A stretch of 64,000 bases of DNA from a virus. The notes beneath the pieces are model-generated. The model worked only from the letters and a program-made list of their open reading frames with translations. It made no database searches and was not told the origin of the DNA. The stretch spans positions 15,925 to 79,924 of IMG/VR virus record IMGVR_UViG_3300047476_001812. One strand, 5' to 3'. This document shows positions 7,743 through 64,000 of the stretch, one piece after another; position 1 is the first letter of the stretch; each line of letters begins with the position of its first letter. A program made the translations under genes and the position numbers.

Positions 7743-8402
7743 TTAGAACTCATCATCTTTAGCGTCTTTGCTTCCCATTAAGATTACTTTGTTGGCATTA
7801 ATCTTGATACCATTTCTGGGTTCACCAGTGGTCTTGTCTGCCCAAGTTTCAAAGACTAAAGTGCCTTCAATCCCAAGGTTCTCGCCTTTACGGCAATACC
7901 TTTCTATGGCTTCACCCTGCTTATTCCAAGCAGTAATGTTATAGAAATACCCCTTCCTTCTTTCACTAATTAAAAGCGAAGTCTGAATAAAAGATTTGCC
8001 ACTTTCATAGATTCTCTTTTCAGGCATTTTCATCATCTTACCTGCAAGATAAATGGTATTGTAATTGACTTCTGCTTTGACTGGACAGACTGAGTGAGCC
8101 AGGATGTAGGGCTGTTCAATAACTTGTTTAGTTTCTTTATCTTTTTGCTCAGTAAACAATTGACCTGTAACAAGCATTTTCATTCCTGGCTTAAATAAAC
8201 TTAACCTGTCGGAGGTAATGCCAGAAAAGGTTTTGTCGTAGGAGTTATTAAATCCTTTGACGGATATTAAATGCTCTACAGGATTACCGTCTTTGTCAGC
8301 TTGAAGATAACTACACTGGGCAATGGAAAATGGTTGTTGCCCAGGAATGTCAGCAAAGGTTTCTACAAAGTTAACTGTGAGCGTAATGTTGATAATGTTC
8401 AT
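7743..8402 (-). CDS. ssb: single-stranded DNA-binding protein, tandem OB folds
   Basis: C-terminal NTIYLAG...YNITAWNKQGEAIERYCRKG...IEGTL...W and acidic tail DDEF; ATG 8402 lies downstream of hairpin motif 8447-8468. Confidence 0.8.
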   Translation of the reverse strand: MNIINITLTVNFVETFADIPGQQPFSIAQCSYLQADKDGNPVEHLISVKGFNNSYDKTFSGITSDRLSLFKPGMKMLVTGQLFTEQKDKETKQVIEQPYILAHSVCPVKAEVNYNTIYLAGKMMKMPEKRIYESGKSFIQTSLLISERRKGYFYNITAWNKQGEAIERYCRKGENLGIEGTLVFETWADKTTGEPRNGIKINANKVILMGSKDAKDDEF

Positions 8403-13200: not shown

Positions 13201-16060
13201 TGGGGTTACCAGACTCAGGAACATCAGCTACACTTCTTGACCTTTGATTTAATGATAGGTTTTGCTTTTCCCCATAAATAGGTCTGTTTACTTGGTAAGT
13301 TCCGGTTTTCTGATACCTATCTTCTTTATAAGGAACTACTGCAAAGTTACCATTATCAAGTCCTGTGTTACCCGTTCTAATGTAAACAGTTCTGTTAGGG
13401 TCATAGATAACTTTTCCAGTTCGTGTATCCCTAACAGTTTGTGGGGAATTAGAATAAAACTCACTTGCTGGAGTAAAGTTATTTATACCTTTTGCGGCTG
13501 GAGCATTGCTAGGAACATCAACAACAATTCCATCAGTATTAAAAGCTAATCTGCCACCAAGATAATCTGTTTCTTGAAGTGATGGATATGCAGATGTGGC
13601 ATTGGTATCTTGATATCCTGTAGGTGCAGAAACTGTTATAGAATTCCCAGAATTAAATATTGTAGTTTCTCCTCTTTCTGGAACAAAATTTCTTCTGAGT
13701 TGCAAGTTTCCAGCAGCATCATAATCCAGATAAGGTGAAATATTCATATTAGCAGGTGCTTTTCTAACTTCAGCAGTTCTTCTGCCACCTCTAGCTAAAT
13801 CAAGAGCATCCATTGATTGTCCACTACTTTCGGCATTAGCGTTAAAGTAGTTGAATAAATCTTGTGGGTTATTATCGTCTACCCACTTTCTAGCAACAGG
13901 CTTAAAAGCATTCCTGCTTGCTTCCCCAAGCAATTGAACATTAGGAGGTTTGGGAGTTCCCATTCTTTTATCCCAAATCTCAATAAAATTGTCAGTAGGA
14001 ATTGGATTTCCTTCTTTGTCTAAAACAGCGTATTGACTGTAATCAACCCTAGGTTCAATAGCTTCAGGTTGTAAAGTTTCTGGATTAACTAAATTCCCGG
14101 TGTGAACATATTTATTAATTGTCTCACCTGTAATTGGATTAATAGCAGGAACAGGTCTAGTAAATGCTTCTAACCCTGGATTAGTAGGGTCTTCCCTGAT
14201 AATGTCAACTAAGTTATCTCTACCACCTTCTCTCATCGCTCGGTTAATGTCAGTTATTTCCTGAGCAAGATTAGTAGTTTGTTTTCTAATAGGTAGCCCA
14301 CCAGACTCCTCACTTACTGCGGGTCTTACTAAATAAAACCCACCATTTTGAGTAACATTAAAAACCTCTTTTGTTAGAGGATTCATGTAAGTAGCACGGT
14401 AGTTTTTTCCTTGATTATCTGTAGTCTCATAGAGTTTTATATTATCTCTATTAAAACTATCCATGTTACTAGCAGGAATGAACTTAGTTTGAGCAGCTTG
14501 ATTAATATAATTATTGTATTGCTCAGGACTAATTAGTTGACGTTTAACTGCATCCTCAAAGGTAACTAATTCATTACCAAGACCATCAACTCTAGGAATA
14601 GAAATACTTGGGATTGCATTGCCTTCTTTGTCACCTGTATAAACAATAGTAGTTGGAGTTCCCCTGCCTTTACTAAACACCCTCTGATTAGTTTCTTTAT
14701 CTATCCAAGTATTAGGTAGTTTAATAGAACCAGCATTATTTAAGAACCCACCTTGTCCTATCCTGGACATTACTTCTGGAGAGTATTCTTGTCCTACCCC
14801 TGCTATTGTTGGTGCTATGCCAATAGTTCTAGGATAGGGAACTGAATTGTCTCTATTAGCAATGTAACTAGCAGTACCAAAAAACCTACCTTCACCATCA
14901 GTTATTTGATTACCTACTTCTTGCTGTTGTTGAATATAGGCTCTTTCTTTGTCTCTATTCCATTGTCTATCAATTAAATATTGTCTAGCTTGTGGAGAGA
15001 GATTAGTGTACTCAGCTAAAGTGGAATTATTTTTAATAGCTAAAGGTGCGTGCCATTTATATTGGCTATTATTATTGCTCGACAATGGTGTTGATTGGTA
15101 AGACACTCCTGGAGTAGTAGGAGTAAATTGATTACCTTGTTGAATAAAAAAGTTGCTATCACCTGCAAATTCAGGGTTTTGATTGACTTCAAATCCTATA
15201 CTTGATTGTATTGATGGTACAGGAATAAAATTACTTTGTTCACCTTGAATTAAATTAGGAATTTCTAATTTAGTAGGAATAGTTCTACCACCGCTAATCA
15301 ACTTTTGAGTAACGCCAGTGGCAGGGTTAAAAACTAACCCTCTGTTATAGTCATAAACTAAACCAGTTAGCAAATCTGTTTTAATACCAACTGGTTTAGG
15401 TATAGGAATATTCGGAATATTTGCAGTTCTATTTTCTCTATCTTCTAATACATTGAACTGATATTTCTCACCTTGTGCTTTAGGCGTTTGAATCCCAGCA
15501 GTTCTATTAGTATTTACAGGAACAACGGTAGGATTAACACCTGAATCCTCACCCCTTATAAACGCTAACGCCCATCTCTCATAATCATTTCTTGGTTGCC
15601 AATTAGAGTCTTGTGCAATAGCATTCTGGACACCTGCTATATCTAACGGTGCTTGTGAAGCTCCAGTGCTTTTTTGACTAACCGCTGATGGGATATAAGC
15701 TGAATCATCTAATAAATCGTAATTAAAATCGTCATAACTTCCAGGAGCAGCATCGTAGATTCCATCATCAAAGTTAGTATAGTTGCCAACGTTAGCTGTT
15801 CTGGGTTCTTGAGATTGTTGAACTTCTGGACTAACGTACCTACCTAAACTACTAAGTACGGCTTCTTGAGTAGCATTCATAGCAGGGCTAGTTACAGCTT
15901 TGGCTAATCTATCTGCTACAATTCTTTTTTTATCTTGTTCAGTTTGCCCCTGTCTAAACATAAAGTTTCCACCAACTAAATCAGGGAATGATTGGTTGAT
16001 GAAAGCATTTAATTGTCCAGGAGTCATCTGAGATACTAAATACTCAATTTCATTATTCAT
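10205..16060 (-). CDS. 1951-aa protein, probable internal virion/ejection protein with C-terminal hydrophobic segment
   Basis: Long uninterrupted N/Q/P-rich ORF; C-terminal WAIPATLGAVWLGLAA; duplicated GGMGFDGGSIPGDYIP; function inferred only. Confidence 0.6.
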   Translation of the reverse strand: MNNEIEYLVSQMTPGQLNAFINQSFPDLVGGNFMFRQGQTEQDKKRIVADRLAKAVTSPAMNATQEAVLSSLGRYVSPEVQQSQEPRTANVGNYTNFDDGIYDAAPGSYDDFNYDLLDDSAYIPSAVSQKSTGASQAPLDIAGVQNAIAQDSNWQPRNDYERWALAFIRGEDSGVNPTVVPVNTNRTAGIQTPKAQGEKYQFNVLEDRENRTANIPNIPIPKPVGIKTDLLTGLVYDYNRGLVFNPATGVTQKLISGGRTIPTKLEIPNLIQGEQSNFIPVPSIQSSIGFEVNQNPEFAGDSNFFIQQGNQFTPTTPGVSYQSTPLSSNNNSQYKWHAPLAIKNNSTLAEYTNLSPQARQYLIDRQWNRDKERAYIQQQQEVGNQITDGEGRFFGTASYIANRDNSVPYPRTIGIAPTIAGVGQEYSPEVMSRIGQGGFLNNAGSIKLPNTWIDKETNQRVFSKGRGTPTTIVYTGDKEGNAIPSISIPRVDGLGNELVTFEDAVKRQLISPEQYNNYINQAAQTKFIPASNMDSFNRDNIKLYETTDNQGKNYRATYMNPLTKEVFNVTQNGGFYLVRPAVSEESGGLPIRKQTTNLAQEITDINRAMREGGRDNLVDIIREDPTNPGLEAFTRPVPAINPITGETINKYVHTGNLVNPETLQPEAIEPRVDYSQYAVLDKEGNPIPTDNFIEIWDKRMGTPKPPNVQLLGEASRNAFKPVARKWVDDNNPQDLFNYFNANAESSGQSMDALDLARGGRRTAEVRKAPANMNISPYLDYDAAGNLQLRRNFVPERGETTIFNSGNSITVSAPTGYQDTNATSAYPSLQETDYLGGRLAFNTDGIVVDVPSNAPAAKGINNFTPASEFYSNSPQTVRDTRTGKVIYDPNRTVYIRTGNTGLDNGNFAVVPYKEDRYQKTGTYQVNRPIYGEKQNLSLNQRSRSVADVPESGNPNPPTVYTPANLQVSRQQTIEGYEPGTVDVFGVNANYLGDFTNTKFYRFKTNPETPLGAYKVNEYGTPIPNEYGFPQEVLTPLYGNPLTLPRSAQIANFQRERDINELGYMRGGEAHPFLVLDENDDPLFIESSVSRPRLMVRDFKGTTPDYQPIPDGMSYEEADRKGLLNPIFNSRTVGLNSSYQIPLPKGVGLARVLDESNPRTQAAIAAQVARRQIPFLVQQRQSILADSSFTPEEKRAKVDELFAQPLAVLGGDEVDALIKIAKKGESKPAFDRKYTITPSRTAGVESPQYTQYLDLATYDDSPDLTFWKENIPGVIPQGVIDGAYLPVTITPRTILAGGEQGFLKDDKIYTTESGRKVQGKDANTFAYVPLNLDNATTNYLPKSKREELELKGFSDDAIQAWANVNPNLARDNALANAKILIDGKYYDVTPQATVAEFNPVAGGNYAMAETRSQGRAARIDLPFKAGARISEPTPEWIVEQAISGNLSFNPDDYISPDDKAILNQKEVYNAGYEEPTDILGAINRTQQKKNQIDAVISNRKQRQVAKPQSDIEVLKYKSYVLGKEAQEARTDIDRLRALQQKAQIDLLIDSPQQRVANNLDGKISSFIDGNYTTLGQDRSFSINPEILPLSDAKRVEFIRNYQPNASDVLLNTKDIAPVQSTRPRDLQEYSDYLAEEINRASAAHNAIVNIEDSPEVVIKRQGNPQQLNAFISAANTLGMQTEDDSFRYKNNPDEKLTASVTGSLPNTYLPYEQAQELNESRLYHPQDIQDAIESGDFSERQIRSMQNARLLPAYRTRQKVELPTVPTSNVAKLGRVKFVEDYMGNPESMLGGMGFDGGSIPGDYIPNPSKVIQQFVPAGNQVINIVPSSSENYQYGSGGNADYGIWDMPITNDSGGMGFDGGSIPGDYIPPQAKTNVQQGVQSEPQQVRTPRTPGTQSFNNPIDPEVKITGGMKIPKWAIPATLGAVWLGLAANARRQQDEDRRQQQGVVNKY
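10464..10696. repeat. two ~41-bp imperfect direct repeats in the giant ORF (10464-10504, 10656-10696)
   Basis: TAATCCCCAGGAATAGAACCACCATCAAA.CCCAT.CCTCC twice. Confidence 0.85.
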
Positions 16061-16302: not shown

Positions 16303-18729
16303 CTACTTCACAACGTAAGCTTCGTTGTAACTTGGATGTCCTACGTTATTAAATCTTGTGTGAAGATGAACCGTAATTTCATCTCCTAATTTAATAGGTG
16401 GCGTGTCCTTAACTGGGACTACACCAATGCTATAGCCATTGGACTTAGCAATGAAGTAATGCTTGCCGTCATTACCAATGCCTGACTCAATCTTCATGAC
16501 AATAGCCTCACCTTTGAAGACTATTTCACGAAAATCTGAATATAGCCGTCCTACTATATTCAGTTTGTCAATTTTGAGAGTCTTAAGTTGTTCACATATC
16601 TGTTCTATACCTAATAGAAAACAGATATTAGTTGAGATGCCTACCCTGTCCTCATGCTCCTTTGCTTGAGGATTGGGAATCCCCGTTTTGTTGTTCCGGT
16701 GTTTGACATCCCAAAAGGCAGCCACAGCCATCATCCTCTGTGTAGGGGGTAAATGATTAAGTATTCCCTCATAGTATCTGCAGATATCTTTTTGAGAAGA
16801 TAACCTACGCTCTTTAATAATTCTGGGAACTCTCTTACCTGGATTATCTTCTTCCCACTTGCGCTGCTCTAATCCAGCAGCATACATGGCAGATGAGTAT
16901 TCGGAAGACACGACTTCTGCCCTCTCAATCCATTTCTTACTAGGATTGAGATGTGAGAAAAGAATGTTAAAAGGTCTGAGATTGGTAGCCTTAAGTTCTG
17001 GGTAAACCCAAAACTTATTTATTTCAGCTACAAGCAGTCCTACGGTATCATTAGGACGTGATGACATCTGGGATGACATATAGCAGTCGTCATTTTTGAC
17101 CTGCTTCAACCAATCAACTCTTTCAGACTTGAGAGCATTACCGATATCATCTAGCAACTTCCTGTTAGGTGGTGTAGCACCTTTGAGGGAGTCTACTGCC
17201 GCTTGCAGCTGCGGCACTAACTGAAATACAAAGTCCTCACGTTTACAAGCCCAGGATTTGGCTATGTAGTATGTGATAAGACCAGTCAAGTTTTCCATTG
17301 ACTTAACCAGGATTTGCCCTAGAGTCCCTTCAATGGGAATCTTCTTAGGTTTTAACCCTGCTTGGTCTAAGTCAGGTTCACCGAAGTTCTTGACTGCCTG
17401 AGCTACGTTAGGTAGAGTTGATGCAGGTAGCCACATAAGGAAATCCCCATCTGTGTCACGCCCCAGTTTCATTAAGGTATTGCAGTTACCTACAATAATC
17501 CCCTCCATCTGCTCCCATTTAGGCAAGACTTTATTTGTCCATACCTTAATATCATATTTCCATCTACAAGGATAGGGGAATACGATTACCTCTTCACCGT
17601 CAGGAAGTCCTGGGATATAACAGCAGTCATCTGGCAACTCCTCGTCTGGCATTACCATAGAGGAGTTAAATTTCATCCCACCAGATGTAGCTATCTCGCG
17701 CCACCGTCGGGATAGCATTCCCATAGTTGCCTTGATAACCCAAGGGTGGGTAGACAACTGACCGTGTACGTCAGACTTTAAAATCTGACTTAACCGAGAT
17801 TCACTAACCTCACTAAACTCCTCGCTTTCATCCCCTTTCCGCAGGAGATACGCTAACAATTTCTGAGGATTGTTGACTAAGATATTTAACTCCTGTGCTC
17901 TCATTTGCGCTACGGGAACTATATCTTTCTGTACACAATCCCAAGGAAGGAACTGTACTACTGAGTATGAAAGATTGGACTTACGGAAGTCCCACCCCAT
18001 TGCATACCGTTCAATAATCTCGGTATCAGTCTCTTCGACCTCAATAAGTCTGGACTTTCTAGACGGAGATTTAAACACCACACCAAAAGCCAATTTAGGA
18101 AGTGTATACTCCCCAGGTTTAACTTTATTGCCTTTGAAACAGGACGTAGGTAAAACAAGGTCATACTTACCTTTCTTAAACCCCACTGCAATTGTACCCT
18201 TTGCACACCAATCAGGGTACATATTGAAAGCCCTAAACTGGAATGGATTGAATATGGAATCCACAAACTCCATAGCAAACTTCTCAGAGCATTTCCCGTG
18301 GCAATCCCCAGTCCTATATTTCTTGGACTTGGCATCACCGTCATTAACAACTAAGAGTTTGATGGCAATATCCTTAATCAACTTACATTCAGTAGTCAGG
18401 TTAGAACCGTAGTTGGCAGCATTCATATTGCTACCAAAGAATCGAGTAAAGCAATTAAGTTCTGAGGTAGAATAGATTGCTTTACCTTCTTTCCTAGAGC
18501 CTGAACCACCAACTAATACATAGTCTTCAAAGCCTTTGTCAAGAACTTCAGAGATGTATTCTAAGTCAGGATTTTCATCAGCTAATAAACTACCCACATC
18601 ACCGATAGCAAACTTAACGTCAGGGAATAGATGCCCCAACATCGTATTGTGATATGTGCTTTGGCAATGCTCTGGTAGCCACTGTTGACTAACTAGGTCG
18701 TATTGCCTTAGAATAAGCTTAGATGGCAT
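16303..18729 (-). CDS. single-subunit two-barrel RNA polymerase, YonO / cellular RdRP (QDE-1)-like
   Basis: Ordered motifs GDCHGKCS, PFQFR...AKGT, LVLPTSCFKG, VIVFPYPC, catalytic GRDTDGDF, LTGLIT, QAAVDSLKG parallel the cellular RdRP motifs DGxGxIS, FQIR..KG, RNP, DxDGD, AVDxxKxG. Confidence 0.85.
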   Translation of the reverse strand: MPSKLILRQYDLVSQQWLPEHCQSTYHNTMLGHLFPDVKFAIGDVGSLLADENPDLEYISEVLDKGFEDYVLVGGSGSRKEGKAIYSTSELNCFTRFFGSNMNAANYGSNLTTECKLIKDIAIKLLVVNDGDAKSKKYRTGDCHGKCSEKFAMEFVDSIFNPFQFRAFNMYPDWCAKGTIAVGFKKGKYDLVLPTSCFKGNKVKPGEYTLPKLAFGVVFKSPSRKSRLIEVEETDTEIIERYAMGWDFRKSNLSYSVVQFLPWDCVQKDIVPVAQMRAQELNILVNNPQKLLAYLLRKGDESEEFSEVSESRLSQILKSDVHGQLSTHPWVIKATMGMLSRRWREIATSGGMKFNSSMVMPDEELPDDCCYIPGLPDGEEVIVFPYPCRWKYDIKVWTNKVLPKWEQMEGIIVGNCNTLMKLGRDTDGDFLMWLPASTLPNVAQAVKNFGEPDLDQAGLKPKKIPIEGTLGQILVKSMENLTGLITYYIAKSWACKREDFVFQLVPQLQAAVDSLKGATPPNRKLLDDIGNALKSERVDWLKQVKNDDCYMSSQMSSRPNDTVGLLVAEINKFWVYPELKATNLRPFNILFSHLNPSKKWIERAEVVSSEYSSAMYAAGLEQRKWEEDNPGKRVPRIIKERRLSSQKDICRYYEGILNHLPPTQRMMAVAAFWDVKHRNNKTGIPNPQAKEHEDRVGISTNICFLLGIEQICEQLKTLKIDKLNIVGRLYSDFREIVFKGEAIVMKIESGIGNDGKHYFIAKSNGYSIGVVPVKDTPPIKLGDEITVHLHTRFNNVGHPSYNEAYVVK

Positions 18730-19305: not shown

Positions 19306-19607
19306 TAACAAGAAACTCCCTTTCTGTGTACAAAAAGCTTCTCATTAATTTTAAACTACAGTCGTTTAAATGGAAACATTTCGCGAGATATTTTCTGTCA
19401 ATTCCCTCGTCGCTATCATTAACTACAAGTACAAAAATAGGTGCGTAGCACCCCATAAAAAAACTCTTCACTCCTAATCCCAAAAGAATACTAACTCCGA
19501 AGGAACTAAAACTACGACTAGGGAGCGTAGCGACCCATAAAAACTTTCTTTAGTTTAAACCTGAGTTATGTTATTATTTAAAGCAAGCAAAATAAACTAA
19601 GTTTACC

Positions 19608-32382: not shown

Positions 32383-32745
32383 AACTTTAACTTCTGTTTA
32401 TTTTGCTATTGGTTATTATAACCTGCAAGGTAACAAAAGAAAAGGGGCATGGTAGCCCCTAAATTTTATTTAATACACTTAAACTACATCAAACTAAATA
32501 GGGGCGTAGCCCCCATGTTTCAAACTTCACAAATAATTAGGCGTTAGCCTTGCCCCCTATTCTTAGTATAAAAACACTAGGAATAGGGGGCTTCCAGTCA
32601 ATTACCTGCCTGAACCGCGTTCCATAAGAAACTCCATTTATTGCTAATACTTCAATTCTAATGGGGCAATCGCCCCTGTACCACTGGGAAAAGTGGGGAG
32701 GATAATCCCCAGTGGTAGTCATCAGGTCAGGCTAGGGAACACCAC

Positions 32746-33636
32746 CTAACTTGCTGCAATGATATCACGTAATTGTGATACTGACAACCCTGCAAGTAGA
32801 ATATTTTCAATTACTTGCTGCATTATTTTTTCAGCATTGCGCTTGTCAGTCGCCTTGACAATTACTTGAAAATCAGGGATGGATTTACCAACACCAATAA
32901 TCCACTGTTTGCAGCGTCTAGCATTGGATTTATAGCCATCAGCCATCATTTGTCTAACTTGAGAGTCCGTAGCTGGGATATGTTCAATGAGTTCTGGCGG
33001 CTGCTCAAGCTCAACTAAGGGAGGAGCAACGTCGTCCAAGGTTAAGCCATATTGGGGAACAGGAACGGCTAACTGAGGCGTTAGCCGTTCACAAGTTGCC
33101 AAATAATTGTCAATAAACTTCTGAGTACGTTGAGACTCAGGGCAACGGTCGAATAAATACTTGGCTTGGTCAATAGTTTCACACTTAGCAAAAGACTGGG
33201 GTTGGCGTGGGTCAAATCTGCGGAAAACAGATTTAGCTACTTTGGAAACGGTTTCTTTAGCTTGAGTTACTGCTGCTTTAATGGGCTTGACAAATTCGTA
33301 AGCAGTTTTAGCAAAGCCACGAAACTTCATCAAGGCATAGGCCGTTTGATTCTGAAACCACTTGGCTTTGATGCCACTGGCAGGATTACAGTTAGCAACT
33401 AAATACTCAAGACTAGAGAGTGACGTGATAGCAAATTCACACACCCGATGGTATGTGTTCTTGGTATCCTTAAGCAAATACACCCCATCTAACTTTCGGT
33501 CAGAAGGAACATACTTAGAGTAATCCGCCCAATATAATCGAGCAATGAAAGTGCCGATAGGGCATTCGGCAAACTGGTAACGACGTGATTCTTTGAGGCA
33601 GGTTAATGTTAATTCGGGCTTAATAGATACTGACAT
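32746..33636 (-). CDS. hypothetical protein
   Basis: 296-aa ORF, GAGG RBS, motif C at 33650. Confidence 0.7.
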   Translation of the reverse strand: MSVSIKPELTLTCLKESRRYQFAECPIGTFIARLYWADYSKYVPSDRKLDGVYLLKDTKNTYHRVCEFAITSLSSLEYLVANCNPASGIKAKWFQNQTAYALMKFRGFAKTAYEFVKPIKAAVTQAKETVSKVAKSVFRRFDPRQPQSFAKCETIDQAKYLFDRCPESQRTQKFIDNYLATCERLTPQLAVPVPQYGLTLDDVAPPLVELEQPPELIEHIPATDSQVRQMMADGYKSNARRCKQWIIGVGKSIPDFQVIVKATDKRNAEKIMQQVIENILLAGLSVSQLRDIIAAS

Positions 33637-33820
33637 GAGATTTTCCTCTGTTTATTTTGCTAATAAATTGAACTGAACATTGAACTGAACACGGTCGTTG
33701 TAGGGGCTATCTAGAATTACCTAAAGTGCGTCCACTTAAACTACAACTACAAAAAAAATAGAACGCGTAGCGCACATAAAAAATACCCAATGGATTAAAC
33801 CAATGGGTAAAAATTGAGCA

Positions 33821-34294
33821 TTAAGCTGCTGCTAAAAGATTACGACGACGAACTCCAATTCCTTCACATTCAATGTAATCAAGGGGAACGATATAACAAA
33901 CTTCACCGCGCCGGACAAAGAAGTTAAAATCGTCGGAGTTTGTTCGGTTTTTCAAAAGGTTGTTTAGACCTGCCAGGGGAATGAGTACGCTATCGAAAGT
34001 TTTTATGTCAATCCACAAGATATGGGTTACTTCCTTGTGGAATGGCATTTCGAGATATAATCCACGAGTGGATTTATACTTTTGAAAGTACAAATTCTCA
34101 ATGCCTTTAGTGGAAGCCTTAATCAAAATCGTTACACTTTTAATCTCACTATTTTTCCAGAAAACCCATCGGAAGACATTAGCTTCAAGCTGGGTTAGGT
34201 TCAGGGTATCAACAGACTTAAAAGCCCATTGAGAAAAGATATTGCAAGCTAATTTGCTGATTTCAACTGTTGTGTAAGCCATGATAAGCTCCAA
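33821..34294 (-). CDS. hypothetical protein (class A cassette)
   Basis: ORF between a class A motif and a terminator hairpin; ATG at 34282 may be the true start. Confidence 0.65.
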   Translation of the reverse strand: MELIMAYTTVEISKLACNIFSQWAFKSVDTLNLTQLEANVFRWVFWKNSEIKSVTILIKASTKGIENLYFQKYKSTRGLYLEMPFHKEVTHILWIDIKTFDSVLIPLAGLNNLLKNRTNSDDFNFFVRRGEVCYIVPLDYIECEGIGVRRRNLLAAA

Positions 34295-34360
34295 TCAAAT
34301 AAAACTACAAACAAAAAAAAGGGAGCGTAGCTCCCCATAAAAACCTTCTTTCGATTAAGC

Positions 34361-34645
34361 CTAGATAAAGAAATTCCCTTCACGCTTTAATTTTTCTATC
34401 AAGTTTTCATCTTTTAAAGGATGAACTTCAATTTCAAAGCCCAAAGCCGAGGATATTTTCTCATATTCTAATTTTCCATTTACGGAAAATTTTTTTGTCT
34501 TAAACCTACCAAAACACGGATTACCGGAATGGAAATCCGTAAAGTAATAAGTCATTTCTTCTGGTAACGACTCTTCATTCAGTAAATTCATTACATTCCG
34601 GTAAACTTCGGATGTTTGAAGCAAGTCTTTATTTAAGTTGGTCAT
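34361..34645 (-). CDS. hypothetical protein
   Basis: 94-aa ORF; hairpin motif at 34675-34696. Confidence 0.65.
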   Translation of the reverse strand: MTNLNKDLLQTSEVYRNVMNLLNEESLPEEMTYYFTDFHSGNPCFGRFKTKKFSVNGKLEYEKISSALGFEIEVHPLKDENLIEKLKREGNFFI

Positions 34646-34720
34646 TTTCTTTTTCTCCGATTAGTTAATTTCCACCAAAAGTAATTAGGCGTTAGCCTTG
34701 TACTTGCTAACGCCAACCAA

Positions 34721-35440
34721 TTAAACCTTGCTTTCTGCAATAAGCCAATTAATGGCTTTTACAATGCTGTTTCCGTGACAGTCTAAGGGTTCACAGAAAC
34801 AGATTAATCTGACATTGACACCTGACTTAACAAGCAAAGCAATACGTTTTAACTCATTCCAAACTGAGTTTTGGGCGTCAGGTTCACGCCATGCAATTTG
34901 CATCTGCTTCCAAAGCCATCTGTGATACAAGTCACAAACAGTTTTTCTGGTATGTTCACCACCCATAGGGTATGGATTCCCTAAAACACTAGGTCTACCA
35001 ATGTAAATATCGGTATAACCAAGCTCAGGAGAAAGTGTTTTCTTATTGACAACTTTGATGTTGCCAACCTTGAAAGTTTGAATCACTTTTGTTTTGGGAA
35101 CACGCTTGATATTTTCAGCAGTCCCTTTGCTAAATCCGTCCCAAATAGCTAAACCAAAGTCAGCTTGAGAACACATAAACTTATCTCTGTCAGTATAACT
35201 GCCATCAACTTTAACTGTACAAAAGCCAGCATTATTTCTTGGCTTTTGATAAGCATGAAAAACAGTTACCGCTTTATAATCTTTGGACTTCAGATATTGC
35301 TGAACTAAGAGGTCAATTCCGGGAGCATCTCCAACAAGAATCTCAAATCTTTGCTCCATGATTTTATCTAAAGACTTAATAACGTCTTTAGGTAAAACAG
35401 GTATTGAACGGCTGCCAGAAATTACTACTTTCATAGCCAA
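34721..35440 (-). CDS. SLOG/YspA-like domain fused to DUF4326
   Basis: KVVISGSRSI...LVGDAPGID...AIWDGFSKGT; IYIGRPSVLGNPY...LICFCEPLDCHG. Confidence 0.8.
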   Translation of the reverse strand: MAMKVVISGSRSIPVLPKDVIKSLDKIMEQRFEILVGDAPGIDLLVQQYLKSKDYKAVTVFHAYQKPRNNAGFCTVKVDGSYTDRDKFMCSQADFGLAIWDGFSKGTAENIKRVPKTKVIQTFKVGNIKVVNKKTLSPELGYTDIYIGRPSVLGNPYPMGGEHTRKTVCDLYHRWLWKQMQIAWREPDAQNSVWNELKRIALLVKSGVNVRLICFCEPLDCHGNSIVKAINWLIAESKV

Positions 35441-35515
35441 GTAAATAAACTACAACTAAATAATTTAGGAGCGTAGCGACCATAAAAAAAGGTGGCTTTT
35501 ACACCACCTAATAAT

Positions 35516-35710
35516 TTATAAATCGTCTATCGTTTCTGCCATTACAGGCTCGTTTAAGCCTGCGGGTTCGTCAAAACGAGGTTCATTTTCCCACTCCTCG
35601 TCTATGGACTTTACTGATAGTCTATACTCCAAGAATATAGACAGTAAATCTTGAGAATCCTTGAGGAATTTCTCTTCAAGAAATTCGTTAAAATTAAAGT
35701 TAAGGTTCAT
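35516..35710 (-). CDS. small acidic protein
   Basis: Cassette between class A motifs. Confidence 0.55.
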   Translation of the reverse strand: MNLNFNFNEFLEEKFLKDSQDLLSIFLEYRLSVKSIDEEWENEPRFDEPAGLNEPVMAETIDDL

Positions 35711-35796
35711 AATAGACCCCAAATTAAACTACAACTAACTAATAGGAGCGTAGCGACCATAAAAAAACCGTCAGCATTTAAGCCAACGGATAAACT

Positions 35797-36228
35797 CTAA
35801 ATTTGAACTATTACTGCATTTGGGCAGTGAGTTCGTATCAAGTTGCCGACTACATTCCAACCCCCACCAGCTAAACCACATCCCATTTTATAGGGAAGAT
35901 ATGGGGTTAACCCTAACTCAATGGATTTAGTGTGAAGTTTATTGAGGCAAACCGTCAAAGCATCATAATCAGTTTGACGTTTACCAATCCCATAGCCATT
36001 TTGACCTGCCATGTTGCAAATATATAAACCAGGATTGACCTTTACAAACTGCACCATTCCAAGGAGGAATTTACCCTCCTTGCAATACTTGGAATAGGAG
36101 GTAAAGCAAACTGGGTATTTTTCTCGCAGGGATTTAGCTAACCCCGCACCCATCACGCCCTTGCAATTAACTTGATGGCAAATAATGCCAGATTCAATTG
36201 TTAACAAATTACCTTTGATTAATTCCAT
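35797..36228 (-). CDS. macro domain protein (ADP-ribose binding/hydrolase)
   Basis: IKGNLL, ICHQVNCKGVMGAGLA, PYKMGCGLAGGGW. Confidence 0.92.
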   Translation of the reverse strand: MELIKGNLLTIESGIICHQVNCKGVMGAGLAKSLREKYPVCFTSYSKYCKEGKFLLGMVQFVKVNPGLYICNMAGQNGYGIGKRQTDYDALTVCLNKLHTKSIELGLTPYLPYKMGCGLAGGGWNVVGNLIRTHCPNAVIVQI

Positions 36229-36288
36229 GCCAATAAACCACCATAAACTACACCTATTTTGCAGGAGCGTAGCGACTCATAAAAATCT

Positions 36289-36510
36289 TTATTGTTTTAA
36301 ATTTTTGTTCAAAGCTTCTGCCAATTTAATGGCTTTGGCTTTAGTTAAACCAACTTTAATGTTAGTTAATTTACCATTAAGTTTCCAGATAACAGACCAG
36401 TATGTGTCATTGTTTATCAGCATTTGGACAGCATGAAAACTGTTTTCAGATAACAATTTTCTAGCGTTGTTAAATTCAACTACAGCAGCCTGAGTTATTT
36501 CTTTAGACAT
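36289..36510 (-). CDS. hypothetical protein
   Basis: 73-aa ORF; hairpin motif at 36523-36544. Confidence 0.6.
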   Translation of the reverse strand: MSKEITQAAVVEFNNARKLLSENSFHAVQMLINNDTYWSVIWKLNGKLTNIKVGLTKAKAIKLAEALNKNLKQ

Positions 36511-36560
36511 ATACTTAACACTTCACTACTTATAAGGCGTTAGCCCTGTACTTTGTATGC

Positions 36561-36803
36561 TTACCAATCAGGATAATCTGTGTTGTCAAGATTAATCCGT
36601 TCTTCTTCTAATTTTTGCTTGAGATAATTAGCCAAGTCTAACACTTCTTCATAAGCGTCTTGTAAAGCACTTCTGTTGTTGAAAGGTTGTAGTGGAGTAC
36701 CGTATTTTTGAATGCCTATCTGTTTCCGGTACAAGATGTCTGCGGCAACCAGATTGGCTATGTGGGGAAGGTTGTTAGGGACTGGATTAGGCAATGGTTG
36801 CAT
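36561..36803 (-). CDS. small all-alpha NTP pyrophosphatase-like (MazG-like) phage protein
   Basis: RKQIGIQKYGTPL...ALQDAYEEVLDLANYL. Confidence 0.6.
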   Translation of the reverse strand: MQPLPNPVPNNLPHIANLVAADILYRKQIGIQKYGTPLQPFNNRSALQDAYEEVLDLANYLKQKLEEERINLDNTDYPDW

Positions 36804-37827
36804 AAAATTTTGTAGTGGTTTTAGATTATCCCTTTAATTTTCCTTGTTAAAGCCTCTTGGATTTGGATTAATAACCAAATACCCCAGAAAGATATTAAAG
36901 GCATTTAAAACACAAAAATAGAGGCAAATCAGAGGACGTGCGGCGGAAAGCTTATCCCCAGGAAAAGGCAAAGGCGTAGACCAAAGAAGGAAATTCTGTG
37001 GTGGGAAAGCAAGGGTAAACCCAGTACAGAAGGTTTTCTAGCATTGTGTACCCTCTAGCCCTCTAACCTCTGGTTTTCTAACAGCCTGTTTTTCTAATAG
37101 CTTACATACCCTAACAGCCTGTTTTAACAAAGCTAATTTAAACTTTCTTGCTGGTTTAAAATTCTTTTGGTTTTTAGGTGAAAGCTTTCCGTGCGCGCAC
37201 CAGGCGATAGCCTGTCCATATTCGGAGGTGTGTTGTAAATAGGACACCTGTTCAAATAAAGTAGTCTTCTTATATCGTGTGTAATTTAATTAATATAATA
37301 TATTAACTAATATATATATAATATAAGAGCAGCGTTTATTTGCTTGATGGTAGCAATAGAGACGTTGGGTAAAAAGGTATTTTGATAGGGTTGAAATAGG
37401 CATTTAAAAGTTATTTTGTATTAATTGAAAGCATTGTTGTTAAAGGGTTTTGGTTTATTTTAATTGTTAACAAATAGTAGGAAATAAGTATATCTTTGTA
37501 CGGATTACTGAGAAGGTATGTAGAATGACTGAGTTCACTATGATATTGTACGATTGAGCATATACTATAAGTGGTTAATGTGATTATAGTATTGAGTGAT
37601 AACCGTACTACTGATGACTAAAGCTTGATTATTGCGCCATTTGCTATAAGTGACAGAGTATCCGCTGAGTCTGTACGTTTGAGCATATACGGACTAGCCT
37701 TTCAAAGAGCTTATTGTCTGTAGTTTGTGGTATAATTGAATAGTCAATAAAAAAAAATCCCCTCGCAAACCTGGTACTGGTAATACCGAAGATTTCAGGG
37801 GAAGTAACCTATAGGGCAGGTCACAAT

Positions 37828-38202
37828 ATGATTATTCTAAATGGTTTTAACCACCGCGTCTATCCTGAGCGGAAATGTATTCCTGGACTTATTTATTTAG
37901 TCAAATGCCATGAATACTACAAAATTGGACAAACAGGTGGACATATCAACGCAAGAATTTCGCAAATACAAACTGGAAACCCATACGCTGTAGAGCTTAT
38001 TGACCAGTTCTCTTCATACAAGCCAAGAAAAGATGAGGACTTTCTGCACCGTTTATTTGATAACGTCAGGGTAAGGGGTGAGTGGTTTGAAATTCCTTCT
38101 ATTTATATTGAAAGCAGAGAAATTTGGTTTAAACCATTTGAAAATATGTCGGTTAAGCAGATTCAAGATGAGATAGAATCCAAGATTCTAGCTGGCAAGT
38201 AA
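37828..38202 (+). CDS. T5orf172/GIY-YIG family protein
   Basis: GLIYLVK...YYKIGQT...RISQIQTGNP...LHRLF..RVRGEWF; TGGTATAAT extended -10 at ~37728-37736. Confidence 0.88.
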   Translation: MIILNGFNHRVYPERKCIPGLIYLVKCHEYYKIGQTGGHINARISQIQTGNPYAVELIDQFSSYKPRKDEDFLHRLFDNVRVRGEWFEIPSIYIESREIWFKPFENMSVKQIQDEIESKILAGK

Positions 38203-38482
38203 TCCTGTCTACGTAAAACACAAACCAATTACCCACTAGCTAATCACCTTGGTTTAGAGTTAGTGGATATTACCTTATCTAAAGCTCTCTTATAGATTAC
38301 ACTGTCGTATTACTCCGTACAAATTGAAGTATCCAGCAATTAGTCTATTGTAATTCCCCTTAATTTAATGTCATCTGAAAGACTAAGTGTATTAATATTG
38401 CAAACGTAGTTGTAGTCTTGGTTTCAGGGGTTTTGCAAAGCTAACAAAAGAAAAGGAGGGACAATGCCCTCCGAGTGAAAAT

Positions 38483-38644
38483 TTATTTTGAGATAACTAT
38501 TGAAACAGTCAAACTTGCCTGCGATATCGCAAGCAGATTTACCCCACTTAGCTTGTTGAACTCCCTTGTCACCAAGGAACTCAAGAATCTTGCTTTGCCG
38601 TTGCTGTAAACAACAGCTTTAGTCCTGACTTTTCTGAGTTTCAT
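38483..38644 (-). CDS. small basic protein
   Basis: ATG 38644 just downstream of a class A motif; terminator hairpin at ~38455-38472. Confidence 0.55.
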   Translation of the reverse strand: MKLRKVRTKAVVYSNGKARFLSSLVTREFNKLSGVNLLAISQASLTVSIVISK

Positions 38645-38724
38645 GATAAAATCCCATTGATTACGCCACAAACAGGAAGCGTAGCGACCATAAAAAAAGG
38701 AGGGACTAAGCCCTCCCAAAATAG

Positions 38725-38916
38725 TTAATATTCAATAAAGTCGTCCTCAATGGGCTCATCGAATGAGGACTTTACCTCCTCAAGGGCTTCTCTCAACATT
38801 TCCATATTCATATCTTCGTACCCCTCCACATCATAAAATTCAGCAAGAAGGAGTAACCCCTCCTTACCAGAGGAGTGGATTCTGTCCAGAGCGGACAGTC
38901 TAAATGTGATTCTCAT
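38725..38916 (-). CDS. small acidic protein
   Basis: ATG 38916 just downstream of the class A motif at 38932. Confidence 0.6.
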   Translation of the reverse strand: MRITFRLSALDRIHSSGKEGLLLLAEFYDVEGYEDMNMEMLREALEEVKSSFDEPIEDDFIEY

Positions 38917-39000
38917 AACCAAACCTGAATTAACTACAACTATATATAGGGAGCGTAGCGACCATAAAAACAACTCTGCCAGAGCAGCAAGCTGCAAGAC

Positions 39001-39030
39001 TTGTCACTTAACCACAAAGTCTGCTATATT
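39001..39030 (+). promoter_or_regulatory. sigma70-type promoter for the putative ncRNA
   Basis: TTGTCA (39001-39006), 18-nt spacer, TGC-TATATT (39025-39030). Confidence 0.65.
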
Positions 39031-39036
39031 GTATTT

Positions 39037-39480
39037 ACTTGGTTGAACTAACTACGAGTGAGTAGACGCAAACCACCACGATGTAAGGCTCTTGAGGCTT
39101 TGAAGTGTAGAGCTAGTGAGGAACTGAGCTTGGTTAGCAGACGAAATGCCGGATAGAGTTCAGACTTGGTAAAACAGTCCTCTAAGCAATCGTGAGGACA
39201 CCGGGCTAAAGTTCTGCCTTACCTGGGAAACCGGGACTTGGTTGAGAGACCCTCAATTAAAGTAAAGAATTAGTTGGCAACTCTAAAGTTGTGATTGCAA
39301 GTTGGTTGTAAAACCTGATTACCTGTAATGTAAATCCCACCTGACTGTAAAACCAAATAATCCCCATTGTTAAAGGATTCTATCTTTTAACCAAGTCTTC
39401 TCTAATCCTGTTTGGTTTACTGCGTAGAGCCAAAGCTAAAGAGGTTAAGAAAACTTACTTGGTTTATAAAAGATGGAAGT
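39037..39480 (+). ncRNA. unidentified structured non-coding RNA (~440 nt)
   Basis: No ORF of 60 aa or more; many stems (GTAAGGC/GCCTTAC, GTCCTC/GAGGAC, CCTGG-GAAA-CCGGG, long 39378-39478 hairpin); upstream promoter. Confidence 0.6.
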
Positions 39481-39548
39481 TTTGTCGTGTTTACCTATAA
39501 CCCGAAGGCAATAAAAGAAAAAGAGAGCCGAAGCCCTCCTAATCAAAA

Positions 39549-39794
39549 TTAGTAACTGTAAGTACCTACGCACTCACCGTCCAGGTAGACATCTACTACA
39601 TAGCTTTTGTCCCCTATGCGGGTTTTTCTAGTTTTGATATCAATGTTGGCGTTGTCAGGTATTTCCCCAACAATACCTTTAATCTTGTCTATCTGCTCCC
39701 AATTCTGGGAATACCCCTGTAGCTGTTTCGCCCACATGGGACGATTGTCCTGACGACCTTCGCTTTCAAACACACCGTTATCTAAATCAAACAT
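39549..39794 (-). CDS. hypothetical protein (class A cassette)
   Basis: GAGG RBS; followed by the GGAGGGC-TTCG-GCTCTC-T-run terminator (~39512-39539). Confidence 0.65.
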   Translation of the reverse strand: MFDLDNGVFESEGRQDNRPMWAKQLQGYSQNWEQIDKIKGIVGEIPDNANIDIKTRKTRIGDKSYVVDVYLDGECVGTYSY

Positions 39795-39943
39795 AACCAA
39801 ATCCTCAATACGTTAACTACAACAAAACTAAAGGGGCGTAGCCCCCATAAAAAACCAACATTAGACAAAGCTAACATCAAAACCTATCAGGCGTTAGCCT
39901 TGTCCATGCGAAGGACAAACGGGGGAATTTAACCCCCAGGAAG

Positions 39944-40366
39944 CTATAACTGCAAGGCTGCAATCAGCTCAGACTTTCGCATACTACCGTATTTGGGTAT
40001 AGCCCTTTCCTTGGCTATAATTTTGAGTTCTTTGACAGTTAAAGAGTTGTAATCTAAGTCCTTGCACTTAGATTGCTCAAATTGAGCATCTAAGGTCTCC
40101 CAAAGCTTGTCACCAGGGTTTGGAAGCTTAGGAGTCATTTGTTCTTTAGCCAATTCAATTACATTTATTTCAGGTTCAGACTCTTGGGAGTCTAAAGTAA
40201 CTTGAACCCAAGAAATGTCGGCAACTTTTAAAGTCTGTTGCTGAGTTCCAATTAATTGGTGTCCAGCGTTATTCCAGATTGTTTCCATATCCAAAATAAA
40301 GTCTGCGGTCATGCAAGCAAACAATGCAACTATTAAAACCAAGCAGAAAAAGACTGAGTAATCCAT
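39944..40366 (-). CDS. membrane-anchored protein with C-terminal Rho-N (HeH) domain
   Basis: N-terminal hydrophobic helix; LTVKELKIIAKERAIPKYGSMRKSELIAAL. Confidence 0.75.
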   Translation of the reverse strand: MDYSVFFCLVLIVALFACMTADFILDMETIWNNAGHQLIGTQQQTLKVADISWVQVTLDSQESEPEINVIELAKEQMTPKLPNPGDKLWETLDAQFEQSKCKDLDYNSLTVKELKIIAKERAIPKYGSMRKSELIAALQL

Positions 40367-40405
40367 ATCTTTTATAAACCGTTATTTTGCTAACTACAAT
40401 TACTA

Positions 40406-41567
40406 TAGGAATCCTAGTTGATTTTTGAAAAAGATTCAGAGAAAATACGTATGAGAATATAAGTGTAAAAGTAGACAATGATAAACCAGCATCTATCAAA
40501 TGTATCATACCCACCAAAAGTGGCAACTGCAATTGCCGAACTACAAGACTTCATAGCAGGTTGTCGTGATGCTCGTGAAGCCAGAAAAGCCTTGGCGGTG
40601 AAATTGGTTTACCAAGATTACTTATACGAAGAGATCCAGACAATTTTAGATGTGTCTTTAGGTTCGATAACTGGTTGGAAGCAAGCTTACGAGCAAAACG
40701 GACTTAATGGCTTAAAGTTAAACCATAAAGGGCGAAAAAGCTATTTGAGTAGCGAACAACGAGAACAAGTGTTAAGTTGGTTGCAAACCAAGAACTGCTG
40801 GGAACTGGGGGAATTGGAGTACAAATTAGCCTTTGAATATGATGTGGTTTATGAGTCAAAGCAAAGTTACTATGATTTATTCGATGCTGCTGACATAGCT
40901 TGGAAGAAGACCACAAAGTTAAATCCCAAAGCCAACCCAGAGGCTGTGGCAGAAAAAAAAAAGAGATTGAAACACTACTGGCAAGCAAGCGTTCCGAAAT
41001 AGAAACCGGAAAATTGAGGGTATTATTAATTGATGAGTGTCATTTAATGTGGGGAGACTTAAGTGGCTATGTCTGGGGGAGAACTGATACAGAAATCACA
41101 GTTCCAGTGGTGAATGAGCGCAATAAACAAACATATTATGGGGCAGTTGATTATCTTGAAGGAAAATTGCTGCTTAGAGCTTACGATAAGGGGAACTCAG
41201 AAAATACAATTGATTATCTGCGATATTTACTAAATGAGTCTGGCGAGCAACAATTGTTACTTTTTTGGGATGGTGCGACCTATCATCGTTCCAAAGAAAT
41301 TCAAGAGTTTTTGGATGAAGTTAATCAAGGTTTGACAATTGACCAATGGAAAATACGCTGCGTCCGTTTTGCACCCAATTGTCCAGAACAAAATCCTATT
41401 GAGGATATTTGGTTACAAGCCAAAACATGGGTGCGGCGTTTTTGTGCCTTAATTCCAACATTCTCACATTTGAAATGGATGTTTGAATGGTTTATTCGAC
41501 ACACTACCTTTGATTTTGCCACTCTTCAGATGTACGGATTTTTTTCAAAAATCAAATAGGAGTCCTA
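40406..41567 (+). mobile_element. IS630-family insertion sequence
   Basis: Terminal inverted repeats TAGGA.TCCTA.TTGATTTTTGAAAAA; TA duplication at 40404-40405 and 41568-41569 (CTAG target). Confidence 0.93.
40478..41559 (+). CDS. IS630 transposase, two ORFs joined by a -1 frameshift at the A10 run (40953-40962)
   Basis: HTH ORF 40478..41002; DDE ORF with LIDECH, WDGATYH, PEQNPIEDIW. Confidence 0.9.
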
Positions 41568-41614
41568 TAGACAGGGCGTAGCCCACATAAAAAAAGGGGC
41601 AATTGCCCCTGTAC

Positions 41615-42178
41615 TTATGACTTAGAAAGTCTCATAGCCTCCTCGTTAGGAGAATACTTGAAACCGCAAGATTCAAGTAACTCACGTAGGTTCAGATTAA
41701 TGCGAGTGTCGTAATAGAAGGCGATATTGCCTTCTATAGAGTTGATTGCCATTTCAATGAAGGTCTTTAGCTTGAGGTCTAAGTTATCTTGAGCTAACCA
41801 CCATTTATGGTCATTGAGGTCGTCCCCACTAGCAGGGACTTCCTGTCCATTCACTTTAATAGAGAGCAGTTGCTCTCCTGTTAGTGGGCAAACCTCAAGA
41901 TGGACTTTGATGGATTCACCCAGATTAACCTTGCCTTGGTTGGCAAGGGTTCTTTCGCAAATTGCATCCAAGACCTTTGGAGGAATTTCCTCCACAAAGA
42001 ATTCACATCTATTTAGCCGATTGATACTCCAGCGCTGCTGGAATTTGCAGCGGTGGTGTTGTAAATAGGCACACAATTTGTCCCCTAAATAGCTGGGGAC
42101 GCATACCATGTAAGCAGGTATGCGAGATGAACATTTCCACTCAGGGATATACAAAACCTCAAATCTTGGGTCAGACAT
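41615..42178 (-). CDS. hypothetical protein (class A cassette)
   Basis: 187-aa ORF flanked by a class A motif and a GGGGCAATTGCCCC-T-run terminator. Confidence 0.7.
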   Translation of the reverse strand: MSDPRFEVLYIPEWKCSSRIPAYMVCVPSYLGDKLCAYLQHHRCKFQQRWSINRLNRCEFFVEEIPPKVLDAICERTLANQGKVNLGESIKVHLEVCPLTGEQLLSIKVNGQEVPASGDDLNDHKWWLAQDNLDLKLKTFIEMAINSIEGNIAFYYDTRINLNLRELLESCGFKYSPNEEAMRLSKS

Positions 42179-42262
42179 AACAAAACCTGGTTAACTACGC
42201 CAATTGGTTGGGAGCGTAGCGAACATAAAAAAAAGGGAATGGATAAACCACTCCCTAATAAG

Positions 42263-42541
42263 TTAGAACCCAACCAATGGGTCATACGACCCAATCATAA
42301 GTTCATTCCATAAGTCGTACTCAGCCTGAGTTAGTTTGAACGTCCTGCGAAGTTCAAGATATTGAAGAATATCTTGAAGAGTTACCCATCTACTCTCAAG
42401 AATCTCTGAACATTGTTGAATGGAAAAAGGAACGTGATATTCAGGATGTTCTTGGTCTGGAAGAATATCCAGGTCAACGAGTGACTGCATAACGGCGGCT
42501 AAGTCACTTTCTGATAGTGTAGAAAGAAATTCCGTAAACAT
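42263..42541 (-). CDS. small acidic protein (class A cassette)
   Basis: ATG 42541 follows AAGGTG; class A motif at 42557. Confidence 0.6.
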   Translation of the reverse strand: MFTEFLSTLSESDLAAVMQSLVDLDILPDQEHPEYHVPFSIQQCSEILESRWVTLQDILQYLELRRTFKLTQAEYDLWNELMIGSYDPLVGF

Positions 42542-42671
42542 ATTAAGCACCTTGTCAACTACACCAATTGGTTGGGAGCGTAGCGACCCATAAAAACATT
42601 TATTGGTTAAAAATTGAGGGCATCACCCCCTTTTTTCTTTTGGTTAAAATAATATATATAGATTAGGTTTG

Positions 42672-63617: not shown

Positions 63618-63934
63618 TTGATTTTAACTGAACCACCAGCATTGATTGATTTCCCGATGTGACCACTTGCTTCTAAGCTACCGCCGCAATTAACTGAGCC
63701 TTCAACGTTATTACATTGGACAGAGCCGCCAGCCTCCAAATTGCCTTGAATGTTTTTGCATTCAACACTTGCATCAGTTCTAAGTGAGGCTAAATCACCA
63801 TCCCATTGAATCTTTATATTACCAGAAAGTCCACTAATTACTGTATTGCCATTGACGGTAATAACGCCGTTGACAATACTAACATTGCCGCCGGAGACTT
63901 CAAAGGTTTGTCCGTTCACTTTTATTTTGTTCAC
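63614..63934 (-). CDS. small beta-helix-like protein (antisense cassette)
   Basis: Repeated G(N/S)V/GGSV units; GGAG RBS; hairpin motif at 63961-63982. Confidence 0.7.
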   Translation of the reverse strand: MNKIKVNGQTFEVSGGNVSIVNGVITVNGNTVISGLSGNIKIQWDGDLASLRTDASVECKNIQGNLEAGGSVQCNNVEGSVNCGGSLEASGHIGKSINAGGSVKIN

Positions 63935-64000
63935 TTGAATACTCCACTAATTTATTTACATCATCACTACTAGTGCGTTAGCCCTTACTAGGAATATTAT

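Follow-up and report, generated by a model that had tools for sequence, protein, structure and literature searches.

A repeated module, probably a phage-specific promoter joined to a terminator, bounds exchangeable small-gene cassettes in a freshwater cyanophage

The DNA analysed here is a stretch of 64,000 nucleotides (the window, bases 15925-79924) of a 79,924-bp IMG/VR virus entry, the genome of a freshwater cyanophage. It carries a repeated sequence, class A, that serves small ORFan-type genes and also lies 5' of an RNA polymerase gene, in an array of terminator-promoter-gene cassettes that an earlier note on this DNA had recognised. Class A is probably a phage-specific promoter packaged with a terminator and read by machinery other than plain sigma-70, most likely the two-barrel RNA polymerase of the phage itself. 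Recombination between class A copies deletes, inserts and swaps cassettes.

Read in the sense of the genes it precedes (minus strand), class A is TTTTTATGG-nn-GCTACGC-ncc-N-(T)GTAGTT(T/A)A, with 14-17 nt (mode 15) between heptamer and box. The T4 run and the GCTACGC heptamer are invariant, and half of the copies have a second or third TAGTT about 6 nt off. The pattern AACTAC-N14-17-GCGTAGC has 11 exact matches, all on the plus strand, where 100 shuffles give 0.00. In the 79.9-kb record the plus strand holds 14 GCGTAGC, every one in the extended class A context; the two copies on the other strand both lack it. The repeat is thereby confirmed as real and non-random, and the counts agree with those first given, twelve copies at 32482-42596 and two at 19421-19543 before the polymerase gene. 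Named by the first G of GCGTAGC, the cores are 19443, 19525, 32504, 33765, 34325, 35471, 35748, 36267, 38679, 38953, 39836, 41576, 42214 and 42578.

Class A modules are spaced every 0.3-2.4 kb in a single orientation. The motif had been described as standing some 8-25 nt before a small minus-strand gene, which is true of most copies: in 10 of the 14 the box is 13-25 nt from the start codon that follows, and the interval contains a G-rich ribosome site. The exceptions are copies 32504 and 33765, the tandem pair 19525/19443 and copy 41576. Copies 32504 and 33765 are about 100 nt 5' of their genes, and a TATAAT-type promoter intervenes. Two other identities for class A were ruled out by inspection, namely an NtcA site (GTA-N8-TAC), whose N8 partner is lacking, and a conserved leader peptide from the invariant ATG, whose frame is broken by the variable spacing. 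GTAGTT, the class A box sequence, is also the tail of the ribosome-binding site in at least six genes in which GGAGTAGTT stands 0-6 nt before the ATG (window 3950 and 4352; genome ~8098, 9414 and 9896).

All copies are on the minus strand. The leftward unit with the polymerase gene is headed by the tandem pair, whose first copy (19504..19543) has GTAGTT/TTAGTT boxes in tandem and a stem that pairs imperfectly, and whose second (19421..19463) has the well-paired sense-strand stem GGGGTGC-TAC-GCACCT. In the array, the copy at 32482..32520 has a perfect stem and is without the T-run (the A-run is missing); after it come a terminator-like hairpin (32443-32460) and the TATAAT promoter, with AGCAAAATAAACAG leader, of a gene for 388 amino acids (aa). 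The copy at 33739..33783 has a double AACTAC box and is recombinant, and that at 34303..34343 has a perfect 6-7 bp stem followed by T8, which is terminator-like, with 20 nt from box to start codon. Further copies precede a 237-aa DUF4326 gene (35448..35490), a 64-aa ORFan not found in relatives (35727..35767) and a 143-aa gene with a weak macro-domain match (36246..36285). Copy 38679 (38659..38698) has the variant box GATTAC in place of AACTAC. The remaining intact copies stand before genes of 63 aa (38932..38970), 81 aa (39815..39854, with a perfect stem and a T-rich spacer), 187 aa (42193..42234) and 92 aa (42557..42596). Copy 41576 lacks an adjoining box because an IS630-family insertion sequence (IS) has inserted between heptamer and box. 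Its upstream half, T-run and hairpin, is at 41570..41595, and the orphaned AACTAC box at 40392..40397, 25 nt before a Rho_N/SAP-domain gene (39944-40366).

Five class A copies lie directly behind a GC-rich hairpin whose U-tract is the motif's own T-run. One such intrinsic-terminator hairpin spans 35490..35509, and hairpins of the same arrangement are at 35768-35789, 38698-38717, 41595-41610 and 42234-42256, all on the minus strand. The earlier note had quoted three places (~35491, ~38699 and ~41596) where the A-run doubles as the U-tract of the preceding gene's terminator, and all three are correct. Terminator-like sites in the region number 30, against 8.4 expected. In the well-paired copies 34325, 39836 and 32504 a GC-rich hairpin is itself directly followed by a U-run, which is not so in the commonest variant, and four class A copies of this genome score as intrinsic terminators on their own. 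The well-paired copies carry T-rich spacers. An upstream terminator is lacking in 16 of 19 well-paired copies and in 9 of 30 poorly paired ones (Fisher p 3e-4; p 8e-4 with similar copies grouped). The modules thus come in two designs, one made of a terminator and a mini-hairpin promoter, the other of one extended hairpin doing both jobs.

Relatives were found by an exact-pattern scan of IMG/VR, and the gene calls are our own crude ones. The genome of the window is designated G000. Its close relatives G001 (75 kb), G002, G003 and G005 have 4-17 class A copies each, in the same two places. The cassette map consists of a conserved backbone with variable promoter-gene units. After gene family f19, f25 and f26 are both missing in G000, G002 has f25 only, and G001 and G003 carry the two. 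Unique to G000 are the cassettes of the 64-aa and DUF4326 genes, and that of the macro gene occurs in G000 and G002 only; the 81-aa gene is missing in G001, which carries three additional units whose promoters are nearly identical. Homology blocks between genomes repeatedly stop at most ~50 nt from class A cores. At the 35448..35490 copy, 71 bp of terminator and promoter are 98.6% identical in G001, and the genes on either side differ. G001 also carries an uninterrupted version of the split site 41576.

Two promoters are chimeric. The left part of G000 promoter 33765 is that of the G001 promoter before f25 and the right part that of the G001 promoter before f20, with the switch between heptamer and box. 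The other chimera precedes f20 in G002: there the f25 end, with its terminator, runs into the promoter-before-f20, and the switch falls in the T-run. The idea that the motif drives gene shuffling is therefore supported by two cassette gains or losses between relatives with the crossover inside the motif, and by variable cassette number; when cassette order was compared across related genomes, gain and loss were bounded by the motif. Since the crossovers fall at different points in the repeat, they point to homologous exchange between copies rather than to site-specific recombination.

The distant phage G006 (75.7 kb, with terminal repeats) has a polymerase 47% identical to that of G000. Its cognate of class A is AATATTTTTCTTTAAAC-GCTTCGC-N13-TGTAAT, present seven times, three just before the polymerase gene and four in a small-gene array (L122-L125, 55509-57090 and 37637-38746). 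On the template strand its heptamer reads GCGAAGC, a G-N-A triloop closed by C:G, and the consensus on its flanks differs too. The architecture and the set of genes served are thus kept and the sequence has changed, which suits a private promoter and its reader. With polymerase homologues further removed (25-27% identical; L119-L121), HIP1-like and collagen-like repeats were all that was found, and no hairpin motif recurs in a comparable way. G006 is rich in the cyanobacterial HIP1 palindrome GCGATCGC (41 copies), unlike G000.

A second motif, class B (GGCTAACGCC-N-TGA), is commoner than class A. Its core GCTAACGC has 35 sense copies, with the TGA fixed 12-14 nt past the core, and it precedes SSB, UvrD-like helicase, ASCH and PNK-phosphatase genes. 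In G006 class B is kept unchanged as GGCGTTAGCC, in 16-20 copies on one strand. The two classes had been taken for subtypes of one promoter, and this stands only in part. They have in common a general layout, in which a GC-closed mini-hairpin with a G...A template-strand loop is followed by a box 12-17 nt away and then by the gene. The box of class B, however, is the TGA at 12-14 nt, and the TAC that many class B copies were said to have exactly 15 nt from the hairpin is weakly borne out, as GTA (=TAC) is at that offset in only ~5 of the 35 GCTAACGC copies. Class B is moreover unchanged in G006 whereas class A has changed, which suggests separate readers or at least partly separate specificity determinants. 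The phage SSB gene (7743-8402, minus strand) lies behind a class B element; an SSB of its own is relevant since N4 hairpin promoters need SSB.

The polymerase gene (16303..18729, minus strand) lies downstream of class A copies 19443 and 19525 and of class B copies 18892 and 19129. It encodes an 808-aa two-barrel single-subunit RNA polymerase of the QDE-1/YonO kind, with DxDGD at residues 425-429. The protein motif is GRDTDGD, and D425, D427, G428 and D429 are invariant in 34 homologues, one of which carries the Pfam RdRP family PF05183. A profile search of Protein Data Bank (PDB) sequences gave weak collinear matches to plant RDR2. In a Foldseek search, the AlphaFold (AF2) model (pLDDT 87.7) matched RDR2 and QDE-1 with E~1e-14 and a TM of about 0.5, and the phage polymerases P74 gp62 and P32 gp64 with E~1e-9; it also matched P23-45 gp96 and gp66, the virion polymerase of the crAss-like phage phi14:2. 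According to the predicted fold, the protein is a double-psi beta-barrel polymerase with a DxDGD metal site. No other DxDGD protein or credible DxDxD protein that could be a second polymerase was found in the genome, nor was a T7-like virion RNA polymerase of the gp50 family, the two-barrel enzyme being the sole polymerase-like protein. Directly downstream is a gene for a protein of 1951 aa (10205-16060, minus strand), rich in N, Q, P, T and G, with a repeated GGMGFDGGSIPGDYIP unit near its end and a C-terminal hydrophobic segment. It has no Pfam, PHROG, PDB-sequence or Atlas match and no polymerase motifs, no homologue search having been run, and seems to be of low complexity, with a membrane segment at the C-terminus.

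On the template strand the class A heptamer reads GC-GTA-GC, a G-N-A triloop closed by C:G, and it is invariant in all 14 copies and in all 42 aligned unique contexts. The perfect triloop stems quoted earlier are there, at copies 34325, 19443, 32504 and 39836. Over the 42 distinct contexts the stem covariation score is 0.242, against 0.158±0.020 in shuffles, none of which (0/500) reaches it. The pairs adjoining the GC/GC core are GC (11), CG (9), UA (4), AU (1) and UG (1), and one orthologous pair of copies differs by an inserted base pair with the stem still perfect (GGGAGC to GGGAGGC). Fewer than three pairs beyond the GC/GC core are present in 30 of 49 unique copies. Comparison of the two strands by DNA folding energy gave no useful asymmetry (-2.9 vs -3.1 kcal/mol).

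We propose that class A is a regulatory module of ~40-70 bp that would separate small, individually expressed genes. In gene sense the module opens with an optional GC-rich terminator hairpin, after which come the invariant T-run and ATGG and the invariant GCTACGC. A spacer of 14-17 nt, A/T-rich for the most part, leads to one to three (T)GTAGTT boxes, and a further 13-25 nt, in which a G-rich ribosome site is found, to the ATG. In the five or six copies behind a strong terminator the motif is the sole conserved sequence before the start codon, so the gene needs a promoter there. Class A is off the sigma-70 consensus, a scan for which gave a single chance overlap (32492-32463), the composite motif is absent from five Nostocales genomes (38.6 Mb in all), and the phage has separate TATAAT promoters. 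Together these favour the phage two-barrel polymerase as the reader, alone or with a specificity factor, and recognition of the heptamer may, as in phage N4, depend on its extrusion as a mini-hairpin. Class A would then switch on small accessory genes and add to polymerase expression, and class B would serve replication-type genes. Because the repeats lie in one orientation at such short intervals, homologous recombination between them rearranges the cassettes.

Several observations weigh against this proposal. About 40% of the copies (GGTC-GCTACGC-TCCY, the commonest variant) pair poorly: the sense strand has C.T and T.C mismatches, and for either strand the folding energy is 0 to -0.6 kcal/mol. 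Seen from the template strand, the mismatches would be tandem G.A pairs, which are stable, and nearest-neighbour tables probably undervalue both these and G-N-A triloops. The G.T wobbles favour the sense, not the template, strand. Since the well-paired stems are mostly those without a separate terminator, their covariation may reflect RNA terminator function rather than promoter shape, and much of it may come from selection on RNA termination. What still speaks for possible recognition of a hairpin by the polymerase is the invariant G-N-A heptamer, which G006 has kept as such and which agrees with what N4 promoters require of their loop (PMC4496689). In both genomes, G000 and G006, class A stands before the polymerase gene. 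Should the phage polymerase read class A, some of it would have to come with the virion or from another promoter; should class A be used first, its reader would be virion-borne or the host enzyme. That class B is identical in G006 while class A has changed fits different readers for the two. The metatranscriptome contigs are sparse and hold no usable transcript ends; what we say on the reader, on timing and on the part played by the hairpin is inferred.

The host RNA polymerase could be the reader instead. TAGTT(T/A) would then be the -10-like element and the T-run an UP element, GCTACGC would be bound at -35 by a phage or host factor, and the hairpin would be idle in initiation. T4 MotA/AsiA and SPO1 sigma switching are models for such an arrangement. 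The geometry fits, as GCTACGC ends 15-18 nt before TAGTT, the T-run would fall near -45, and the spacing varies by 4 nt as it does at sigma-type promoters. Terminator duty would account for the well-paired stems, and a reader that precedes the phage polymerase is just what the position of the polymerase gene behind class A, in G000 and G006 alike, demands. The box, however, is without the conserved final T of a -10 hexamer (T and A are about equally frequent), and its TG abuts the TA instead of standing one base away. The absence of the composite motif from the five candidate-host genomes also speaks against it, as does the lack of a sigma-like gene among the proteins, only ~40, that a Pfam scan covered. 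Box and heptamer both differ between G000 and G006, although the specificity of host sigma-70 is highly conserved.

Promoters of the host type are, moreover, already present in this genome with a different conserved leader. About 13 canonical TATAAT promoters with AGCAAAATAAACAG occur on both strands. In the form (A)GCAAAATAAACAG(G) the leader stands 8-15 nt before ~13 start codons on both strands, often 7-8 nt past a canonical TATAAT, and its positions include 969, 5942, 7670, 19587, 20703, 20728, 32406, 33660 and 52587. It probably marks the 5' end of host-polymerase transcripts. In a few promoters it lies directly behind a class A box or a class B GTGA. Taking both sides together, we regard reading of class A by the host enzyme as rather unlikely.

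Less likely still, class A would act in RNA: between cistrons, as a terminator or processing site, or, within a long polycistronic transcript, as a translational regulator's operator. The pairs compatible with G.U favour the sense strand, as this requires, the four copies of G000 that score as terminators on their own would be explained, and one metatranscriptome contig (depth 2.3) ends 8 nt past the hairpin of copy 39836. Five or six copies, however, have a separate strong terminator directly upstream, which would let little read-through RNA reach them and leave the gene promoterless. The invariant T-run stands 5' of the hairpin, where a terminator would not have it, RNA of the commonest variant scarcely folds, and neither the invariant loop nor the conserved distal box is explained. 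We consider an element of this kind improbable. It is most improbable that the copies are dedicated site-specific recombination sites, folded like the integron attC hairpins that are recognised on one strand, or mobile-element remnants, with regulation secondary. Cassettes do vary among relatives and have the motif at their borders, but the two crossovers that were mapped are in different places (the heptamer-box interval and the T-run), as is typical of homologous exchange, no integrase was found among the ~40 scanned proteins, and the fixed distance to start codons would go unexplained.

Returning to the phage polymerase as reader of class A, a bolder version would have this QDE-1/YonO-like enzyme recognise extruded template-strand G-N-A mini-hairpins, a strategy reached by convergence with N4, with class A (accessory genes and polymerase) and class B (replication genes) forming a cascade. 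We put this forward tentatively, as a possibility that we doubt more than we believe.

Other features of the genome concern its completeness and its host. The ends of the record (1-191 and 79734-79924, the latter at window 63810-64000) match with one mismatch. The genome is thus complete at ~79.7 kb, terminally redundant or a circular assembly, although the record is classed as linear and CheckV takes it for a 57% fragment. Its GC content is 38%, and no Rfam family and no tRNA was found within the window. Synechococcus phage S-EIV1 is the one relative that has a name, with 37.6% identity in the portal-like protein; among 50,697 phage records, neither the region (by megablast) nor the polymerase (by tblastn) had a match. 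The IS630 element (40404..41569, plus strand) has a TA target duplication, 27-bp terminal inverted repeats (40406-40432 and 41541-41567) and open reading frames (ORFs) for helix-turn-helix (HTH) and DDE_3 domains, split across two frames. The copies closest to it, at 88-95% amino-acid identity, come from Nostoc, Nodularia, Fischerella and other Nostocales, which points to a filamentous cyanobacterial host, and the phage probably infects Nostocales.

Small shares of the genome are found, as contigs only, in six freshwater metatranscriptomes, and coverage is patchy in the four examined. The IS630 element is the best-covered stretch in these four; it is also present at other loci, and the contigs continue into unrelated sequence at both of its ends. 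Outside it, the highest contig depths (26.5 and 17, in two runs of one study) are over an ORF-free island in the cassette array (39063-39499), which has no Rfam match. The array also holds a lone plus-strand gene (37828-38202) with a MUG113/T5orf172-type domain (E 1e-13), which may be a mobile nuclease-like gene.

Class A is closest in form to the early promoters of phage N4, which need a template-strand 5'-G-N-A-3' loop closed by C:G and are read by a T7-like RNA polymerase that forms part of a virion protein of 3,500 aa (PMC4496689). Both have a GC-rich heptamer between inverted repeats, a 3-nt G-N-A loop closed by C:G, several copies before early-type small genes, and an A/T-rich stretch between hairpin and gene. 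The N4 stem has 5-7 bp that need only to pair where they are not conserved; class A stems vary too and may keep their pairing in the same way. At N4 promoters the start site is 11 nt from the loop centre, and their use depends on supercoiling and SSB. The polymerases differ, that of N4 being T7-like, whereas this phage has only one of the two-barrel QDE-1/YonO-like kind. N4 has three promoters with a purine loop centre (-11 A/G) and no conserved sequence outside -17..+1 (PMC4496689), whereas class A has 14 copies, in which the T-run upstream is invariant and another box follows 14-17 nt downstream, a loop centre of T in G000-G003 and G005 (A in G006), and only a 2-bp perfect stem in ~40% of its copies.

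In their arrangement, class A modules resemble the PeSL (promoter-early stem-loops) cassettes of the T4-type phages RB49 and phi1 (PMC2839356). These too are short repeated promoter-plus-terminator modules among small non-essential ORFan genes, and recombination between copies likewise produces indels and replacements between close relatives that are bounded by the modules. PeSL promoters, however, are strong and of the sigma-70-like host type, which class A is not, and the PeSL stem-loop is a terminator only. Excised mini-circles are a further mark of PeSL cassettes. Class A is a second, independent case beyond T4-type phages, with a non-host promoter, in which regulatory modules are the recombination joints that shuffle accessory genes.

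How single-chain two-barrel polymerases find their promoters is an open question, motifs having been mapped only in P23-45 (PMC10770324). There the promoters of gp96 have an AT-rich and those of gp64 a GC-rich motif, the virion polymerase transcribes the gene of the second polymerase from a different motif, and the word 'hairpin' is not used in that paper (PMC10770324). Like P23-45, the phage described here encodes a two-barrel polymerase in a single chain and has two different motifs that recur at upstream positions. The first P23-45 class serves, in addition, the gene of the second polymerase. Only one such polymerase is detectable here, with a fold closer to the eukaryotic RNA-dependent RNA polymerases QDE-1 and RDR2 than to gp64 or gp96. 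The promoter of SPbeta YonO was left undefined (PMC5467207). With ~50 candidate promoters in two classes, natural variants and the diverged cognate pair GCGTAGC and GCGAAGC, this phage lineage makes the question testable in vitro. If the hairpin is indeed read by the two-barrel polymerase, class A would be the first defined promoter for the YonO-like branch.

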